From: Verrucomicrobiota bacterium
Lineage (GTDB): Bacteria; Verrucomicrobiota; Verrucomicrobiia; Chthoniobacterales; UBA6821
NCBI GenBank assembly: GCA_008932965.1
Contig: WBXG01000054.1
Span: 1 to 11,931 of the forward strand
Reading direction: 5' to 3'
DNA: 11,931 bases
Notes under the pieces: model-generated
Databases searched by the model: none
What the model saw: the letters and a program-made list of their open reading frames with translations, nothing else
Told to the model about the DNA's origin: nothing
Part shown: one piece after another, positions 1,013 to 11,931 of the stretch
Layout: each line of letters begins with the position of its first letter
Numbering within the stretch: position 1 is the first letter of the stretch
Translations under genes and position numbers: made by a program

Positions 1013-1957
1013 ATGACTCCACTACCCCTTGATTTTGAACAACCCCTACTCGAGCTTGAAAAATGTCTTGATGATTTAATTTCTCGTACCCCTGAGGATA
1101 CCCATCGCATTTCTGTGATGCAGGAAAAACTCGAACTTATGAGGGTTGACCTCTATAAAAACCTCACTCCTTGGCAGCGTGTCCAAATTGCACGTCACCC
1201 CTCCCGCCCCTATGCCCTTGATTATTTGGAACGATGTTTTACCGATTTTGTAGAGTTGCATGGTGATCGTTGTTTTGGAGATGATAAAGCGATGCCCGCT
1301 GGTATTGCTCGAATTGGCAAATATCGGTGTGTGATCATTATGCAACAGAAGGGACGTAACGTGAAAGAAAATGTCCTTCGTAATTTTGGAAGTCCTCATC
1401 CTGAAGGCTATAGAAAGGCATTACGATTGATGCGACTTGCTGAAAAGTTTTCTCTCCCGGTGATTACCTTTATCGACACACCCGGAGCCTATCCTGGGAT
1501 TGGTGCTGAAGAGCGTCACATTGCTGAATCTATTGCCGTGAATCTTCGTGAAATGATGCTGCTAAAAGTTCCGATTATTTCTGTTATTCTAGGTGAAGGG
1601 GGCTCTGGGGGAGCCTTGGGAATAGGTGTTTCAGATAAATCCCTCATGTTAGAAAATGCCTACTACTCAGTCATCAGTCCTGAAGGATGTGCTGCCATTT
1701 TATGGAAACACCGCAAACATGCCCCAGAAGCAGCTGCAGCACTAAAACTAACAGCTCAAGACCTCACTGATCTAAAACTCATTGATGGAATCGTTCCAGA
1801 GCCGCTTGGCGGAGCTCATCATAATGCTTCTATGGCAGCAACAGCAGTGAGACATGCAATCATCGAAGCTTTAGAAGAATTGGAAAAAAAATCACTTCCT
1901 GATCTTCTCGAGGAGCGCTATGCCAAATTCCGTAAGATGGGGATCTTTTCCGAATAG
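1013..1957 (+). CDS. accA: Acetyl-CoA carboxylase carboxyltransferase subunit alpha
   Basis: 314-aa ORF. The N-terminus LDFEQPLLELEKCLDDL and the core FGSPHPEGYRKALRLMRLAEKFSLPVITFIDTPGAYPGIGAEERHIAESIA ... SVISPEGCAAILWK match the AccA family as I know it from E. coli and other bacteria. Confidence 0.95.
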   Translation: MTPLPLDFEQPLLELEKCLDDLISRTPEDTHRISVMQEKLELMRVDLYKNLTPWQRVQIARHPSRPYALDYLERCFTDFVELHGDRCFGDDKAMPAGIARIGKYRCVIIMQQKGRNVKENVLRNFGSPHPEGYRKALRLMRLAEKFSLPVITFIDTPGAYPGIGAEERHIAESIAVNLREMMLLKVPIISVILGEGGSGGALGIGVSDKSLMLENAYYSVISPEGCAAILWKHRKHAPEAAAALKLTAQDLTDLKLIDGIVPEPLGGAHHNASMAATAVRHAIIEALEELEKKSLPDLLEERYAKFRKMGIFSE

Positions 1958-2643: not shown

Positions 2644-2714
2644 TTGAGAATCTTACAAGTTGACCTCAGTTTTTCATACTAAATCTGTAAAGAATCAGGA
2701 AAATCTTTCTGATT

Positions 2715-2893
2715 AACCCGGATGTTTCATACTGATCGTGACGAGGAGGCCGCGAAGGCTGATGGGGTAAGGCAGACGAGCATTTTGATGCAGGGCTGTA
2801 TGTGTACATACTGCCCAAATCAAAATGTGAGTCTAACGCAACATCCATCTGACTTCCCAGCTGCTACAGATGATCGGTATGCAAATTCGGGTT
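2715..2893 (+). repeat. ~180-nt TIR-bounded structured intergenic repeat, copy A
   Basis: Aligns by eye with 5761-5942, 5942-6123 and 11861-11931. Terminal arms 2715-2737 and 2872-2893 pair (18 Watson-Crick + 1 G.U). Internal hairpins at 2748-2760 and 2781-2827. Long-range helix 2763-2775 with 2849-2859. Confidence 0.7.
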
Positions 2894-3755
2894 ATGCCAG
2901 TGCTGGCAATCCAAGAGGAAGGCTCATCTTATTGCCTCCTTGAAAAGCACGACGCATTTTGGAGAGAGCTGCATTTTGAAGTTGACGAATGCGTTCACGA
3001 GTCACTCCCATTTTTACACCAACTTCCTCGAGGGTGATCGGCTCGGAGCCATCGAGACCAAATCGGCTGTTAAGAATCGCACGTTCACGCTCATCAAGTT
3101 GACCGAGAATCTCGACTAACTCTCCCTGCATATCTTTTTCATTCAGCTGTTCAAAAGGATTGAAAGCCATTTCATCACTCACGATTTCCGAAAGCTCTGT
3201 AGTTCCATCATCACTTAAAGGGGCATCCAAGGAGGTAGGACGTACCGCTGACATTTTTAACTGAGCCACCTTCGAGGGAAGCATTCCGACCTCCTCAGCA
3301 ATCTCCTCATGAGTTGCCTCGCGCCCCAAGGCTTCAGCAAGGCTATCACCTACACGACGAATCTTTGCTAGCTTATCGACAAGATGAATGGGGAGACGTA
3401 TCGTTTTGCTTTGGTTAGCTAAAGCTCGTTTAATCGATTGTCTGATCCACCATGATCCGTAGGTGCTTAACTTACCCCCTTTTGCTGGATCAAAACGTTT
3501 CACCGCTTTCATTAAACCAATATTTCCTTCTGAAATAAGATCGAGAAGAGGTAACCCGAAATTAGAGAATTCTCGTGCAATCTTCACCACGAGCCGTAGG
3601 TTGGAACGAACCATCTCTGCAAAGGCGGCTTTGTCACCCTCCTTAATTAATAGTGCAAGCTCTACCTCTCGTTGAACCGAGATAAGCGGATAACATGAAA
3701 TTTCTTGAAGATATTTTTGTAAACTTGGATCAGTATTTTCAGAGGAATAATTCAT
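2892..3755 (-). CDS. RNA polymerase sigma factor, sigma-70 family (RpoD/RpoS-like, regions 1.2-4, no region 1.1)
   Basis: 287-aa ORF. LQKYLQEISCYPLIS (region 1.2), NLRLVVKIAREFSNFGLPLLDLISEGNIGLMKAVKRFDPAKGGKLSTYGSWWIRQSIKRAL (region 2), TIRLPIHLV (region 3) and ITLEEVGVKMGVTRERIRQLQNAALSKMR (region 4.2 HTH). Closely parallels E. coli RpoS/RpoD blocks. Confidence 0.9.
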   Translation of the reverse strand: MNYSSENTDPSLQKYLQEISCYPLISVQREVELALLIKEGDKAAFAEMVRSNLRLVVKIAREFSNFGLPLLDLISEGNIGLMKAVKRFDPAKGGKLSTYGSWWIRQSIKRALANQSKTIRLPIHLVDKLAKIRRVGDSLAEALGREATHEEIAEEVGMLPSKVAQLKMSAVRPTSLDAPLSDDGTTELSEIVSDEMAFNPFEQLNEKDMQGELVEILGQLDERERAILNSRFGLDGSEPITLEEVGVKMGVTRERIRQLQNAALSKMRRAFQGGNKMSLPLGLPALA

Positions 3756-3839
3756 AAATGATGGTTTTAAGAAGTTGATGTTTCTAACGGCATTAGACAG
3801 TTAGTCGGGGCCTGACGTTCATGTTTTTTAGAAAAGATT

Positions 3840-4106
3840 TTAGACTTTTAAAGCAATATTCATGTGCAAAAGCTTGCAGGGATTAAACAAGGGGGGAGCT
3901 CCAAAGCTCTCCCAATCGGAACCTAGGGCTGTATCACCAATCAGAAGAGTTCTTTTTTGGAAAGGTGATAGCTCTTCACAATAATCTAATAAGAAAATAT
4001 CCTCAGAGGATTGCTCTCTTGAGTCATTAAGAAGATCTCTAAGAGATGCTGGAGTAGTGTAACTGAGGGAACGTTGAACGATCGGCTTCTTGGGGGGAAT
4101 GAACAT
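3840..4106 (-). CDS. Hypothetical small protein (88 aa), directly upstream of the sigma factor on the same strand
   Basis: ORF only. It fills an otherwise empty 400-nt gap between the sigma gene and divergent comM. No recognisable motif. A weak purine-rich AGAGAG precedes the ATG. Confidence 0.3.
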   Translation of the reverse strand: MFIPPKKPIVQRSLSYTTPASLRDLLNDSREQSSEDIFLLDYCEELSPFQKRTLLIGDTALGSDWESFGAPPLFNPCKLLHMNIALKV

Positions 4107-5732: not shown

Positions 5733-5760
5733 CGCTCTTTCTTGTAATCCCCATTTGATG

Positions 5761-5942
5761 AACCCAGATATTCCTAATCATCGTGACGAGGGAGCTTCCA
5801 AGGCTGACGAGTCAAAGCAGGCGAGCATTTTGACGCAGGGCTGTAGGAGTCCCTCTACCGCTACAATTATAATTCGAGACTAACGCAGTAACAATGAGCT
5901 TTCCACAAGCCATAATAAATTTAGTATGAATGATTCGAAATA
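5761..5942 (+). repeat. ~180-nt structured intergenic repeat, copy B (degenerate, first of a tandem pair)
   Basis: The 5' block AACCCAGATATTCCTAATCATCGTGACGAGGGAGCTTCCAAGGCTGACGAG...GCGAGCATTTTGACGCAGGGCTGT aligns to copy A with a 1-nt indel. The small hairpin is kept as AGCT-TCCAA-GGCT (5793-5805). The right arm ATGATTCGAAATA runs straight into copy C. Confidence 0.6.
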
Positions 5943-6123
5943 GCCCAGATATTTGATACTGATCATAACAAGGAGGCCGCGAAGGCTGATAGGGTAAGGC
6001 GAGCGATGAAGTCTGACGACGGCTGCATGAGTACCTACTGGCCTAGGAAGACTTCGAGCTTGGGCGCAGCATCCACCCTCGCTTCCCGCTCTACGTAGGT
6101 GATTGGTGTAAAACATCCAGGTT
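5942..6123 (+). repeat. ~180-nt structured intergenic repeat, copy C (second of the tandem pair)
   Basis: Terminal arms 5942-5965 and 6100-6123 pair (16 WC + 4 G.U). GGCC-GCGAA-GGCT hairpin at 5975-5987. Long-range helix 5992-6003 with 6078-6087. Internal hairpin GAAGTCT/AGACTTC at 6008-6014 and 6049-6055. Confidence 0.7.
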
Positions 6124-6147
6124 AATGTTACTTTTTTTTGAAACTCT

Positions 6148-7604: not shown

Positions 7605-8423
7605 ATGCAATGGGAGTTGAACTTTTCTCGATCCAAATTAAGAGGTTACACGTTTTTTAATAGGACATTTTTGAATACTGTGGCACTACTTCTTGCCATC
7701 GGTTGGTCAATAAAAACAGTTGTTGATTACTCCAAAGCGGAAAAGAACTATGAGATTCTTTTAAAAAAAGAAGAGAAGGTCAAAAAATCATTGAGCAGAT
7801 CTAGACTTGATGAACTTAAAAGAGCACACGAAGAAGATGTGCTGATAGAAAATTTTCTAAGCCAATGGTTTAAAAATTACCAAATCATTTTGCCCAGAGA
7901 GCGTCTTTTTGAATCTCAAGAACAATTCGAAGATCAGTGGCAGAGGGATATAATAGCGATCCAAGAGAAAGCAAAAAAAAGATTCGTAACACTTCCAGTT
8001 CCCTTTTACTTAGGAAATTCTCAGCCACAAGGGGCCACTCACTCACCAGAAGAGTTATTGCAACATAGCAAAGAGGAATTTCACCTTTTCTGGATAGCAG
8101 ACCATCTTTGTGAATATCCAAATTACCAAATCGAAGAGTTCACTTATAAAAAAGATTTCAAAAGATTAGAATTCATCAATGCTGAAACATTAGGATCGCT
8201 AATAATAGTAATTAGAATCAATGAATCAACATTTCAAAAAATATTAAACGGGATATTAGCAAGTCCTTATTATCTTATTATAGAAAATATAACAATAGAA
8301 AATAATAATAAAATTGGGCCACAACATTTATTAGAAGAAAAAAATGATTCTATAAAAAAAATTTTAGGTGGTGATAAACTAAAAATTTCAATGAAAATAA
8401 CTTTGTTAGATTTTAGCACATGA
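7605..8423 (+). CDS. Membrane-anchored coiled-coil protein, Amuc_1100-like (PilO/PilN-like topology)
   Basis: 272-aa ORF. N-terminal TM FLNTVALLLAIGWSIKTVV, then a Lys/Glu-rich coiled coil. The C-terminal blocks ESTFQKILNGILASPYYLIIENITIENNN and IKKILGGDKLKISMKITLLDF line up with my recollection of Akkermansia Amuc_1100 (ESVLKAMNAITGMQDYLFTVNSIRIRNE and IKPYMGKEQVFVQVSLNLVHF). The stop overlaps the next start (ATGA). The family assignment rests on memory and needs an HMM check. Confidence 0.6.
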   Translation: MQWELNFSRSKLRGYTFFNRTFLNTVALLLAIGWSIKTVVDYSKAEKNYEILLKKEEKVKKSLSRSRLDELKRAHEEDVLIENFLSQWFKNYQIILPRERLFESQEQFEDQWQRDIIAIQEKAKKRFVTLPVPFYLGNSQPQGATHSPEELLQHSKEEFHLFWIADHLCEYPNYQIEEFTYKKDFKRLEFINAETLGSLIIVIRINESTFQKILNGILASPYYLIIENITIENNNKIGPQHLLEEKNDSIKKILGGDKLKISMKITLLDFST

Positions 8424-9472
8424 AAACAAGGAGATATTATTACTTACTTATTATCATTGGATGTATCATGATTGTCTTCTTTTTAAACATCATAAGAAAA
8501 AGTATTTTTAAAGAAATCGTTTTTTTAGATAAAAAAAAGGAAGACCTCTTCATGGATAGTAGTACTCAACATAGAAAAATATATCATCTACAAGATATGG
8601 AAGATCTATTAAAAATTCAATTATCAAGTAAGGGTATAGAAGATGGACACCTTTTTTCTACAAGAATTTATTATAGTAGAAAAGGCATATTACATGATCT
8701 CCAGGAAGAGGTAACGTTACTTTATCCACCTGTTCCTAATCAATGGCTTATTGATCATGATCTGGATTACTCCAATCCCAATATCCTCAACGAAGATTCC
8801 GATAATGATGGATTTACTAATTTAGAGGAGTGGGCAGGAGAGGAACCTTATCAGGCTCCAGGAACTCAATCATCAGATCCTAATAACCCCAATTCACATC
8901 CACTCCTGTGGACTAAATTAAGAGGCAATATCAATTCTTTGCATAAAAATAACTATTATTTTGATTTCATAGGAACAGAGAAAAATAATCAAGGAGAGTA
9001 TTTCCTTATACAACCACAAACTCCAATTCCCGATAAAAACACTCAAGGAAAAAACATACTAACTAAAAAAGTAAAGCATCTTAAAATAGGTGAACGAATT
9101 GCAGATTTACCGATCGCTCTCTCTTATTATTCGAATGATGAAACCATATATAAAGATATTCATTACGATATCAGCACACTCACGCTGAGGCAAAGTGTAA
9201 CAGGGGAATCTTGGTCACTAGTTAGGAAAAGTTCTTTTCATCCTCAATCCTCACTGGTTTCTATTATTGATGCTATTACGTTTGATTATAAATTAAATTC
9301 TTCGGCTCAGAAAATCTATGCCATCAACGGTTCTTTTTTTAAGTTAGAAGATTTAGAAGCAAGTGAAAGTGAAATATATCAACTGATAAGACTCGACTCT
9401 AAGGAAGCGGTAGTCGAACGCAATGGACATCATTATTCAATCCCAATTACTAATGAATTTAACAATCTTTAA
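8420..9472 (+). CDS. Membrane-anchored hypothetical protein with a thrombospondin-type-3-like acidic Ca-binding motif (position equivalent to Amuc_1099)
   Basis: 350-aa ORF, coupled to the upstream gene by an ATGA overlap. N-terminal TM YYYLLIIIGCIMIVFFLNII. DSDNDGFTNLEEWAGEE...SSDPNNPNS (8795-8896) resembles the D-x-D-x-DG-x-x-N/D-x-x-E repeat. Located immediately upstream of the secretin. Confidence 0.7.
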   Translation: MKTRRYYYLLIIIGCIMIVFFLNIIRKSIFKEIVFLDKKKEDLFMDSSTQHRKIYHLQDMEDLLKIQLSSKGIEDGHLFSTRIYYSRKGILHDLQEEVTLLYPPVPNQWLIDHDLDYSNPNILNEDSDNDGFTNLEEWAGEEPYQAPGTQSSDPNNPNSHPLLWTKLRGNINSLHKNNYYFDFIGTEKNNQGEYFLIQPQTPIPDKNTQGKNILTKKVKHLKIGERIADLPIALSYYSNDETIYKDIHYDISTLTLRQSVTGESWSLVRKSSFHPQSSLVSIIDAITFDYKLNSSAQKIYAINGSFFKLEDLEASESEIYQLIRLDSKEAVVERNGHHYSIPITNEFNNL

Positions 9473-11931
9473 CACCAATAAATTTTCTTTTTTAATCACC
9501 CTTGCATCTATTTTTTTTGGCTTAGAGAGATTTTCTTTTAGTAACACTCAAGAAGTAGGTCAAAAAGAGGAAAAACAAATTATTATTAATGCACAAAGAA
9601 AGATGGCAGAATGTAAAATGCATTTAGGAATAAATGCACTAAGGAATAAAAAATATCTTTTAGCCTTTAACTATTATAAAGGGGCCATTGATGAATTAGA
9701 GAAGCCAAAAGCAGCATTAATGCCGCTCTATCAGGAAGCTTTATACTTACTCAATAACACAGCTGTTTTGCTTATATTAGAATATTTATCATTTTATAAA
9801 TATGATGATGCAAAACATATTGCGTCTGTTATTACTAACAGAAAGTACTTTTTTGATTATCCTCCAAAAAATTATTTAGTACCAAAAATATCACATATCA
9901 CCGCAAAAAAGACTATCACTTTTACTCAAGAGAAATCAGAAACACTCGAGACGATTTTATTAAGAGCTATCGATTTTTATCAACAGGAGAATTGGAAAAG
10001 TGCTTCTGATTCATTTCATGAAGCACTTCGTATGGATCCTAATAACGATACATCGCTTATTGGCTTATTACTTATCCAACAACAAGAGAAATGTGAATTG
10101 AAGCTTCATGCTGATGAACAGCAAAACGAGATGTTAGAAAAGGTAGATCAGTCTTGGCAATTACCTATTTCCAGTTGTGAAAATGTTAATCAAACTACCA
10201 CAAATCTACCTATTACTAACAACATTGATTTGATTAGAAAAAAAATCGATAGGATTATTATACCAAACATAGAATTTATTGACACACCTCTTCAATCATC
10301 TCTAGAGCAGATCAGGAATCAAGCTTTCCTTTTAGATAGCGATGAAAATGATTCTAATAAAAAAGGCATTAATATTGTGTTAGCATGTAATTTAAAAAAA
10401 CTTATCCCTGAACCTAAGATTACATTATCACTATTAGATACCCCCTTGCATGAAATACTTAAATATGTAACACAGCAGGCACACATGCAGTTGAGAATTG
10501 ATCCCTATTCTATAGCTATTATTCCGGAAAATGAACCTCAAGAAATACTAGTAACTAAAGATTTCAGAGTCCCATCTGATTTTATTTCTCAAATTTCAGC
10601 ATCATTTCCCTCGAATTATATTAATAGTGAAAATAAGAGCTCGAAAAAAATAGAGGCTCTTTCCATAAAAGATATTTTACTCTCCCAAGGTATTACCTTT
10701 CCTCCTGGGGCTACAGCTCACTTTCTTCCTTCAAAGAACATTCTTGTGGTTAAAAACAGTCCATCAAACATCAACTTAATAGGCTCGTTAGTAGAAAATT
10801 CTTTCCCTAGTTCATTAAAACAAGTCGAAATTGAAGCCCGATTCCTTGAAGTAAAACAAAATAATAGTAAAGAACGGGGTGTTAATTGGCTTTTAGGAGT
10901 ATTCCAACTTGGAAACAATATCAATTCAGTAAGTAGCAGAATTGAAAACAAAACGAGGGATCCTGAATCAGAGCAGCATTTTTTAAATAATAGCAATCCT
11001 AATTCAAATTCTACGAATATTGAAAAGAATTTAGGGCAATCAGGCATAAGCGCTCATGCATTAGAAACATTATTATTTGGCAACCCAGCAGGGTCAGCGC
11101 TAGGCATGCTCACTCTGGCTGGAGTGCTTTCAAACAATCAATTTCAGGTTATACTCCGGGCTATTAATCAACACAAAGGAGTAGATCTCCTCTCTGCTCC
11201 TAAAGTCACTGTCTCTAGCGGAAAAAAAGCTACGATTCGAGTTGCTCGAGAATTCCCCTACCCAGCAGATTATTCTCCACCTCAAATTCCCCAAAATCAA
11301 GGCACTAGCGTCAATCCAGCGATTCCGACAACACCCTCCTCTTTCAAAAAACGTAATGTTGGAGTTGAACTAGAGGTCAAACCAATCGTTGATGCTAATA
11401 ATAATAGTATAGAGTTAAGCCTTTCTCCAGAAATTGTGGAGTTTCAAGGATTTGTTAACTACGGGAATCCTATTTTTTCACAAGCCCCTGTTTTTTTGGG
11501 AGGAATGACAAATGTTATTACTTCAACAACACACGTTCTTCTTACACAAAACAATATTAACCAGCCTGTCTTTAGCGTGAGAGAAGTAAATACCCAGGTA
11601 GTGCTCCACGATGGTCAAACAGTTGTTTTGGGTGGGCTTATGCGTGAGGATATTAAAAAAGTAGAAGAGAAGATCCCTGTTATTAGCAGCATTCCTATTG
11701 CAGGTTCCTTGTTTCGCTCTTCCTCCGAACAAAAAATTAAACGCAATCTACTCATTTTTGTCACAGTGCATCTCTTGGATCCCTCTGGTAAAATCACCCC
11801 TCCAAAACAAAACCCCTCCCCTAGTTCAAGAGTGACTAAAAACTCCAGAGAGGCTTCGTTAACCCGCATATTTCATACTGATTCGTCGCGAGGCGCCGCG
11901 AATCCTGATGCAGACAAGGAAGGTGATGGAT
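9453..11931 (+). CDS. Secretin-family outer-membrane channel with an N-terminal TPR-like extension (Amuc_1098/PilQ/GspD-like), 3' end not in window
   Basis: Not in the ORF track. I translated frame 3 codon by codon from 9414 to 11930 and found no stop. ATG 9453 gives a signal-peptide-like MNLTIFNTNKFSFLITLASIFFGL (alternative ATG at 9423). A TPR-like segment follows (LLRAIDFYQQENWKSASDSFHEALRMDPNN). Next come N-domain-like blocks (IIIPNIEFIDTPLQSSLEQIRNQ; LLSQGITFPPGATAHFLPSKNILVVKNSPSNINLIGSLV). The secretin core is VEIEARFLEV ... FQVILRAINQHKGVDLLSAPKVTVSSGKKATIRVAREFPYP ... VGVELEVKPIV ... QVVLHDGQTVVLGGLMRED ... KIPVISSIPIAGSLFRS ... KRNLLIFVTVHLLD. Confidence 0.85.
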   Translation, partial: MNLTIFNTNKFSFLITLASIFFGLERFSFSNTQEVGQKEEKQIIINAQRKMAECKMHLGINALRNKKYLLAFNYYKGAIDELEKPKAALMPLYQEALYLLNNTAVLLILEYLSFYKYDDAKHIASVITNRKYFFDYPPKNYLVPKISHITAKKTITFTQEKSETLETILLRAIDFYQQENWKSASDSFHEALRMDPNNDTSLIGLLLIQQQEKCELKLHADEQQNEMLEKVDQSWQLPISSCENVNQTTTNLPITNNIDLIRKKIDRIIIPNIEFIDTPLQSSLEQIRNQAFLLDSDENDSNKKGINIVLACNLKKLIPEPKITLSLLDTPLHEILKYVTQQAHMQLRIDPYSIAIIPENEPQEILVTKDFRVPSDFISQISASFPSNYINSENKSSKKIEALSIKDILLSQGITFPPGATAHFLPSKNILVVKNSPSNINLIGSLVENSFPSSLKQVEIEARFLEVKQNNSKERGVNWLLGVFQLGNNINSVSSRIENKTRDPESEQHFLNNSNPNSNSTNIEKNLGQSGISAHALETLLFGNPAGSALGMLTLAGVLSNNQFQVILRAINQHKGVDLLSAPKVTVSSGKKATIRVAREFPYPADYSPPQIPQNQGTSVNPAIPTTPSSFKKRNVGVELEVKPIVDANNNSIELSLSPEIVEFQGFVNYGNPIFSQAPVFLGGMTNVITSTTHVLLTQNNINQPVFSVREVNTQVVLHDGQTVVLGGLMREDIKKVEEKIPVISSIPIAGSLFRSSSEQKIKRNLLIFVTVHLLDPSGKITPPKQNPSPSSRVTKNSREASLTRIFHTDSSRGAANPDADKEGDG
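11861..11931 (+). repeat. ~180-nt structured intergenic repeat, copy D (truncated by window end)
   Basis: AACCCGCATATTTCATACTGATTCGTCGCGAGGCGCCGCGAATCCTGATGCAGACAAGG aligns to the 5' block of copies A-C in the same orientation. It shares the left-arm core TTTCATACTGAT with copy A and the CCGCGAA...CTGATG segment. Confidence 0.6.

Follow-up and report, generated by a model that had tools for sequence, protein, structure and literature searches.

A probable new family of non-autonomous transposons in freshwater Chthoniobacterales with in-frame insertions, stop-codon targets and orientation along GC skew

The window, that is, the whole stretch of 11,931 nucleotides that was analysed (contig WBXG01000054.1 of assembly GCA_008932965.1, Verrucomicrobiota), carries a LysM gene, accA, rsmI, a sigma-70 factor gene, comM, the gene for a CCA-adding enzyme and a secretin operon. 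Copies of a repeat of about 180 nt are located between these genes or at their ends, and a profile search with nhmmer found five of them and one relic, all on the + strand. The features discussed below are the following:

817-992, + strand: copy E, core 821-988, flanked by CTAA (817-820) and TGAA (989-992), between the LysM gene and accA
2659-2692, + strand: left-end relic of a further copy (GTTGACCTCAGTTTTTCATACTAAATCT...), just upstream of copy A, seen by repeat search and as a weak nhmmer match
2713-2895, + strand: copy A, near-consensus, with TTAA at 2713-2716, core 2717-2891 and TTAT at 2892-2895; nhmmer 168 bits
about 2717-2745 and 2863-2891, + strand: inverted-repeat ends of copy A
2892-3755, - strand: sigma-70 gene from the ORF list, with Pfam Sigma70 regions 1.2 to 4
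2892-2894, - strand: TAA stop codon of the sigma-70 gene, inside the right 4-mer TTAT (2892-2895) of copy A
3840-3843, no strand assigned: empty target site TTAG
5759-5943, + strand: copy B, core 5763-5939, left 4-mer TGAA, right 4-mer ATAG (5940-5943); nhmmer 108 bits
5940-6125, + strand: copy C, core 5944-6121, right duplication TTAA (6122-6125), head-to-tail with copy B; nhmmer 132 bits
9423-11931, + strand: ORF of a PilQ/GspD-type secretin (Pfam Secretin, residues 581-785, E 1.4e-33), which reads into copy D without a stop
11859-11931, + strand: copy D, cut by the window end, TTAA at 11859-11862, core from 11863, subfamily b; nhmmer 47 bits

The initial annotation had described copies A to D as homologous repeats on a single strand, and they were recovered as such by repeat search and MAFFT alignment, all on the + strand and with a mean column identity of 63%. 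Two features were absent from its list: copy E, a degenerate member of subfamily c that was found with the profile search (nhmmer E 1e-14, model positions 3-177), and the relic at 2659-2692, at whose site the syntenic contig L028 has two tandem copies. Copy B is old and degenerate, lies 28 nt past the comM stop codon and has the tetranucleotide ATAG at 5940-5943 in common with copy C. The window is evidently a whole metagenome contig whose end falls inside copy D, and in another assembly of this region the contig is interrupted within copy A.

Regarding the distribution of the family, a scan of GTDB species genomes with the DNA pattern ATACTGATN{10,14}GCCGCGAANNCTGA returned 67 stretches, 65 of which are in five freshwater Chthoniobacterales/Spartobacteria MAGs. 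The other two belong to unrelated genomes (L022 and L042), and neither is among the loci with profile matches. In 439 kb from the five MAGs, nhmmer gave about 182 non-overlapping matches, including 92 full-length copies, and each genome carries dozens of dispersed copies. Contigs break inside family copies, as the window does in copy D. The subfamilies are partly species-specific, and 10 copies that form a near-identical cluster are all from one MAG, which implies amplification after speciation. Moreover, neighbouring copies tend to be co-oriented (34:19), and tandem copies are head-to-tail in 14 cases and inverted in 2.

The core of the element measures 176 bp. Its left end is CCCGGATATTTCATACTGATCG and its right end is the inverted copy, CGATCrGTATGAAATATCCGGG; these terminal inverted repeats are present in about 90 copies, and the end sequence for comparison with insertion sequences is CCCGGATATTTCATACTG. 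The two halves form an imperfect palindrome over the full length, with about 72% complementarity. The element has no transposase of its own, and its only ORF is a read-through frame of 59-60 codons whose peptide has no Pfam domain.

The TTAA-like borders noticed in the initial annotation are real, and the target-site duplications that it suggested looking for were found as concordant pairs of flanking YTAR tetranucleotides: TTAA/TTAA in 34 copies, CTAG/CTAG in 17, TTAG/TTAG in 3 and CTAA/CTAA in 1. The inverted combination TTAG/CTAA was found in none, against these 55 direct concordant pairs. Near-identical copies within one subfamily are flanked by either TTAA or CTAG, so the tetranucleotide comes from the target and not from the element. 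The correlated outer bases favour flanks that are a duplicated 4-bp YTAR over a duplication of TA only, although, with most sites palindromic (TTAA and CTAG account for 51 of the 55 pairs), a 2-bp duplication in the style of IS630 or IS427 is hard to tell apart cleanly from one of 4 bp. Abutting copies have a single YTAR in common and a spacing of exactly 180 nt. With a core of 176 bp and a duplication of 4 bp, each insertion adds exactly 180 bp, which corresponds to 60 codons.

The evidence recovered for empty sites consists of one clean intergenic site and one intragenic ortholog pair. The intergenic site was located with L028, a syntenic contig of a close relative (amino-acid identity of 91% for the sigma-70 factor and 90.5% for ComM). 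When window positions 3700-3900 are aligned with L028 1080-1560, the relative shows TTAG, the element and TTAA where the window (...GATTTTAGACTTT...) has only the TTAG of 3840-3843, a tetranucleotide that is also the stop codon of an 88-aa ORF at 3840-4106 on the - strand. Furthermore, L028 does not have copies B and C, and exactly at the site of copy A, on the sigma-70 stop codon, it is occupied by a copy of another subfamily. In the more distant relatives L069 and L070 only remnants are found at the A and B sites and synteny is lost beyond them; L069 has a remnant at the sigma-70 stop codon, and both have a remnant of the first ~65 nt at the site of copy B. These two were the only relatives that a metagenome scan with ComM yielded.

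All these features are best explained if the repeat is a non-autonomous DNA transposon (MITE) of a freshwater clade of Chthoniobacterales (Verrucomicrobiota), a reading to which a probability of about 0.8 is given. A MITE origin had been mentioned as possible in the initial annotation, and it gains support from the inverted-repeat ends, the YTAR duplications, the empty site, the dozens of copies per genome and the assembly breaks. A transposase encoded elsewhere would cut YTAR with a 4-bp stagger, like IS5, and this would be a DDE transposase with IS5-like target chemistry that mobilises the element in trans. The folded-back rod described below would then be a property of the transposon and not of a host RNA gene. 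Concerning the autonomous partner, the 439 kb sampled showed no transposase-like ORF, no pair of inverted repeats at IS-like spacing that encloses a transposase, and no full-length IS with the same terminal inverted repeats; the all-against-all comparison of ORFs in the sampled DNA revealed no multi-copy ORF. MAGs usually lose IS copies. Two candidates for full-length elements, L045 1239-3243 and L037, proved to contain ordinary genes instead, for BrnQ-like permeases and a lipoprotein.

The element is compatible with coding sequences. Its stop-free frame is the one in which the target YTA reads as a Leu codon, usually one frame per strand, and it is open in 45 of the 92 copies on the + strand and in 61 on the - strand, compared with 5% of shuffled sequences; the other four frames are open in only 1 to 10 of the 92. 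When the target is a Leu codon (TTA or CTA), the protein gains 60 residues without a frameshift (L-TRIFHTD...EISG-L, with TRIFHTDRDEEAAK and HQPSRPPRHDQYEISG as examples of the encoded peptides). When TAR is the codon that is read, the target is a stop codon (TAA or TAG) and the gene stays intact. An explicit "design" can be read from this, in which 60 codons are inserted at a codon for Leu or at a stop and each strand keeps one open frame.

In fact, 18 of the 92 full copies (about 20%) are located in frames without a stop over 40 or more codons to either side. In some N-terminal cases the true start probably lies downstream of the copy, as in L029 compared with L014, and several of the internal ones look sound. 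In the glutamine-dependent NAD synthetase NadE (L053), two tandem copies contribute 120 residues that split the Pfam NAD_synthase domain, and the flanks align contiguously with a solved NadE. In a low-molecular-weight phosphatase (L006), the insert has TTAA on both sides, splits the Pfam LMWPc domain and, in the comparison with YwlE, separates helix 1 from the strand that follows by 60 extra residues. The ortholog of this phosphatase in another MAG (L020) does not have the insert, reading ...FKKM-L-PKNTEIEVASAG versus ...FKKM-L(60 aa)L-TSHHQFAVTSAG in L006. As judged from these alignments, in-frame insertion is directly validated for NadE and the phosphatase. GlnD, prephenate dehydratase (PheA) and a GT39 transferase also carry inserts. 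In the window, copy D enters the secretin ORF near its C terminus, where it is inserted at a TTA Leu codon of the tail and keeps the frame (...REAS-L-TRIFHTD..., with the translation ...NSREASLTRIFHTDSSRGAANPDADKEGDG). A search with the element peptide returned only small stand-alone hypothetical ORFs without a Pfam domain and no large host proteins; the contigs looked up for these small ORFs were redundant loci in which transposases were absent.

Of the 75 element edges beside gene 3' ends, 21 (about 28%) are at a distance of -1 to +2 nt from the stop codon, copy A at the sigma-70 gene being one of them. In intergenic placement, 17 copies are between convergent genes, 25 between co-directional genes and 5 between divergent genes.

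The structure of the repeat was analysed at the level of the family. When 88 copies aligned with MAFFT were given to RNAalifold, it predicted no pairs, and the rod of copy A together with pair counting was used instead. Copy A folds as one long interrupted hairpin rod, with -79 kcal/mol on the + strand (z -7.8) and -62 kcal/mol on the - strand (z -4.6). The initial annotation had described a conserved multi-helix fold. The fold-back itself is conserved, but the helices that it called P1, P3 and P4 are successive segments of a single rod with no multi-helix junction, and copies B (z -0.1) and C (z -0.3) fold no better than shuffles, unlike copy A. The compensatory changes reported there do hold across the family, since cells of the rod are changed on both sides of the pair 296 times versus 150 in shuffles, and the cells are paired in 73% of cases versus 32-48% when the partners are slid. 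The small hairpin P2 (GGCC-GCGAA-GGCT), which was thought to be kept, shows no covariation across the 88 copies. The mean fold z is -7.9 for the + strand and -6.2 for the - strand, and in 83 of the 88 copies stability is greater for the + strand, mainly because its mismatches are purine-purine.

The strand on which the fold is kept had been deduced from G.U pairs said to exist only on the + strand. In an alignment of the arms that gives wobble pairs no advantage, G.U and A.C number 6 and 5 in copy A and 6 and 10 in copy C, which does not bear out that statement for the window. In that first form the argument was dropped, as the global counts (507 G.U versus 391 A.C) and those of the subfamily consensuses (28 versus 27) are too even, and a signal appeared only after shared variants were separated from private ones. 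Private (copy-specific) changes at Watson-Crick positions within subfamilies are symmetric, with 42 G.U and 40 A.C, so the fold of an inserted copy decays neutrally. Variants shared by at least two copies of a subfamily, in contrast, comprise 35 G.U sites and 6 A.C sites, and among shared-variant transitions at paired positions 38 keep a wobble pair and 12 break the pair. The strand-specific pairing is thus seen in the variants that spread and not in the private ones. A mutational cause of the bias was considered and rejected, as C>T and A>G are not in excess at unpaired positions. The wobble bias of shared variants and the more stable + strand point to the propagation or persistence of the element itself and not to a host RNA function.

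The initial annotation recognised no known RNA class, and Rfam 15 gave no matches in the window at E<=1; in four other loci the sole match, MIR8001, is a chance one, as its 30.6 bits are far below the gathering score of 90. Scans of the copies for promoters and terminators showed nothing consistent. Orientation with respect to transcription, which was proposed there as a check, is even: the + strand coincides with the majority coding strand in 69 cases and opposes it in 69, co-directional spacers contain 9 sense and 16 antisense copies, and the copies inside genes are split 9:9.

Two explanations that involve the host have to be weighed with these results. The one preferred in the initial annotation was a set of structured non-coding RNA genes of ~180 nt, with P1 to P4 selected on the + strand transcript. 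The rod kept across subfamilies, the stability of the + strand and the preference for G.U in shared variants would agree with it, but the indifference to transcription, the lack of a consistent promoter or terminator in the copies and of a matching Rfam family, the private mutations without wobble bias, the shuffle-like folds of copies B and C and the decay of old copies do not; about a fifth of the copies are inside coding frames, and the target duplications and the empty site mark insertion by transposition. A host RNA gene family is not supported, what is left of the idea being a strand asymmetry at the level of the family, and selection of the pairing as structured RNA is considered very improbable. 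The other explanation, which would add to the transposon reading instead of replacing it, is that the host has co-opted some copies, either as 3'-end stabilisers, attenuators or RNase III sites or as surface loops of 60 residues that would modify proteins. Correia, ERIC and REP elements act as RNA hairpins in such roles (3'-end stabilisers, attenuators or RNase III sites). The enrichment of copies after gene ends and between convergent genes could reflect such use, as could the folding of both strands well below shuffles, the occupation of the sigma-70 stop-codon site in three related species and the persistence of in-frame inserts in NadE, GlnD, PheA and the phosphatase. Nevertheless, stop codons as targets and purifying selection against promoter disruption explain the distribution equally well, decay is visible in old copies (B and E as well as those reduced to remnants in L069 and L070), and only the small hypothetical ORFs mentioned above came out of the peptide search, so that co-option is given a small chance.

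Concerning orientation, the + strand of the element lies on the locally C-rich strand in 121 of 158 copies (46 loci versus 10), and in 74 of 91 copies (22 loci versus 4) when the gene-strand component is cancelled; the gene-strand effect is about zero in these genomes. The + strand of the element is itself G-rich, with a skew of +0.116, so unmasked relics cannot create this effect. The window, with a skew of -0.048 and five of five copies on the + strand, fits the rule, which explains why its copies had all been seen on the same strand. We infer that copy orientation is tied to a replication-linked strand asymmetry, with GC skew on MAG contigs of 6-20 kb as no more than a proxy for the direction of replication. 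Gene-strand bias was uninformative as a check of polarity (149 versus 163 genes).

In E. coli, Trinh and Sinden reportedly found in 1991 that asymmetric palindromes are deleted through the more stable hairpin on the lagging-strand template. The likeliest cause of the orientation of the MITE would be similar: copies whose stronger hairpin lies on the lagging-strand template may be lost faster through hairpin-promoted slippage, a model that predicts the observed polarity. Alternatively, insertion could be coupled to the replication fork. Stability did not differ significantly between copies that conform to the rule (57) and copies that violate it (22), which lends the slippage model no support. 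Loss by slippage alone leaves the wobble bias of spreading variants unexplained and, given the lack of a stability difference between the two groups, the folded + strand could also have a role in propagation. It should be noted that plain cut-and-paste transposition predicts neither the + strand wobble bias of shared variants nor the orientation along GC skew.

A rival reading is that the element moves like an IS200/IS605 derivative or a REPIN, mobilised as single-stranded DNA by an HUH enzyme of the Y1 type, with the folded + strand excised and inserted at the fork beside YTAR. Several observations would fit: the whole element is a long hairpin whose + strand (z about -8) is usually the stabler one, the bias towards G.U is found in spreading and not in private variants, the orientation is tied to GC skew but is independent of transcription, tandem copies are mostly head-to-tail, and a DDE partner was not found in the sampled loci. 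However, the left and right YTAR vary together within one subfamily, as expected of a target duplication but not of a right-end cleavage site that is inherited. The inverted repeats reach the very tips instead of forming subterminal hairpins, the local hairpin P2 lacks covariation, and no Y1 or RAYT gene was seen in the sampled loci. Moreover, the + strand lies on the C-rich strand, the reverse of the polarity of IS608-type elements, whose active strand is said (Ton-Hoang et al., in 2010) to be on the lagging-strand template, the G-rich strand. Single-strand mobility of this type is therefore unlikely. A further variant, regarded as a long shot, would have the element propagate through a single-stranded, folded-back + strand intermediate at the replication fork and still duplicate YTAR. 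If true, such an intermediate would account for the wobble-tolerant spreading variants, the tip-to-tip rod and the GC-skew-locked orientation, and the pathway would be distinct from both classical DDE cut-and-paste and IS200/IS605. With the rule of orientation and the different behaviour of shared and private wobble variants, a link between replication and the mobility or persistence of a MITE becomes testable from sequence data.

Compared with known systems, the object is a new MITE family with a behaviour like that of the Rickettsia palindromic elements (RPEs) and a replication-linked orientation. Both are short palindromic repeats with an open frame, of about 150 bp in RPEs and with a unit of 180 bp in the Verrucomicrobiota family. 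To our knowledge, RPEs have no clear terminal inverted repeats, YTAR duplication or empty site, all of which are present here, and the Verrucomicrobiota family, unlike RPEs, also targets stop codons and follows GC skew. RPEs are repeatedly present as in-frame inserts of housekeeping genes that are unrelated to one another (PMC10969869). As the hosts belong to different phyla, a relationship in sequence is not expected and the likeness is a functional analogy only. The family would be a second, well-defined system, outside Rickettsia, in which a mobile palindrome is routinely found in frame inside conserved enzymes, and one whose insertion chemistry can be read from its ends, its duplications and its empty sites. 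Intragenic ERIC and the QMITE1 of Coxiella are also MITEs with ORFs that give in-frame fusions with host genes (PMC10969869, PMC5896051), with a frequency of in-frame copies far below that of RPEs (PMC10969869). They are unrelated to the Verrucomicrobiota family in sequence, host and duplication.

The insertion itself resembles that of other groups. Correia elements of Neisseria, Nezha and other IS630-type MITEs are similar in their size of 100-200 bp, long inverted repeats, TA-centred target, folding as hairpins in transcripts and position next to genes, but they duplicate TA only, while the correlated outer bases favour 4 bp in this family. We know of no 60-codon design and no replication-linked orientation in them. 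REPINs with RAYT and the elements derived from IS200/IS605 are likewise long, hairpin-forming, non-autonomous repeats with compensated changes in their arms, and IS200/IS605 elements reportedly show strand-specific behaviour and a link with replication (Ton-Hoang, also in 2010). They are extragenic, with subterminal hairpins and no target duplication, in contrast to the duplication, the intragenic copies and the tip-to-tip inverted repeats of the Verrucomicrobiota family, whose polarity along GC skew is also opposite to that expected from IS608. IS5 ends start with GG in ISfinder, and the ends of this family start with CC. The IS5 group has terminal inverted repeats and makes 4-bp YTAR duplications (PMC5009759), as is the case here; the differences are that no IS5-like transposase with the ends of the family was found in the sampled loci and that the family targets almost only the palindromic TTAA and CTAG. 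The annotation of freshwater Verrucomicrobia MAGs is also affected by these copies, which give rise to contig breaks, spurious hypothetical proteins of 60-100 aa and enzymes with inserts of 60 or 120 residues.

The site at the stop codon of the sigma-70 gene is filled in three related species, by differing subfamilies of the 180-nt element or by a half-remnant. The occupants are the following (here and below, loci with the prefix L are other contigs, mostly from MAGs of related freshwater Chthoniobacterales):

Window 2713-2895, (+) strand: copy A of the 180-nt element
L028:75-255: occupant in the contig syntenic with the window
L069:1004-1072: occupant of the same site

This site could be either a hot spot that has been refilled or the place of an old copy that was overwritten by conversion.

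Regarding the structure of the family, the right arm of the copies at L030:6904-7083 and L038:3458-3636 is the reverse complement of a left-arm variant and not the usual right-arm sequence; hence, new palindromes seem to originate by the inverted duplication of one end. Furthermore, one MAG carries a tandem duplication of a BrnQ-like permease gene (L037:1843-4445, L045:1273-2430), and since fragments of the 180-nt element border the duplicated block, there are hints of an element-mediated rearrangement.

Mini elements of ~51-56 nt, consisting solely of both inverted-repeat ends of the 180-nt element face to face, were also observed:

L036:920-975: mini element
L068:7040-7090: mini element

A second repeat of ~80 nt, which contains GGGGAGACTGCCTTTAGGCCGCCCTGAAAGGGC and is unrelated to the 180-nt element, was found as follows:

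L028:1258-1335: ~80-nt repeat
L036, L060, L038, L058, L023, L068, L017 and L054: pieces resembling it

This repeat is absent from the window; it sits inside many copies of the 180-nt element, at position ~50 of the nhmmer profile, and the reverse nesting was seen as well, with a 180-nt element inserted in the TTAG of the ~80-nt repeat.

The open frame of the element is called in public annotations as stand-alone hypothetical proteins of 57-107 aa (P0001-P0034, returned by the search with its peptide); these calls are probably artefacts that the repeat causes in annotation. In Rfam, a sub-threshold match to the plant microRNA precursor MIR8001 (L033:7037-7082), which scores 30.6 bits where the gathering score is 90, spans the junction between two tandem copies; this match is a palindrome artefact.

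Concerning the other genes of the window, two ORFs precede the secretin gene:

Window 7605-9472: ORFs of 272 and 350 aa, immediately upstream of the secretin gene

Neither of them matched any Pfam family, and their products are presumably assembly proteins for a pilus or for secretion, of a type not yet described. Moreover, accA (+) and rsmI (-) are convergent, and their 3' ends share 40 nt (window 1918-1957).
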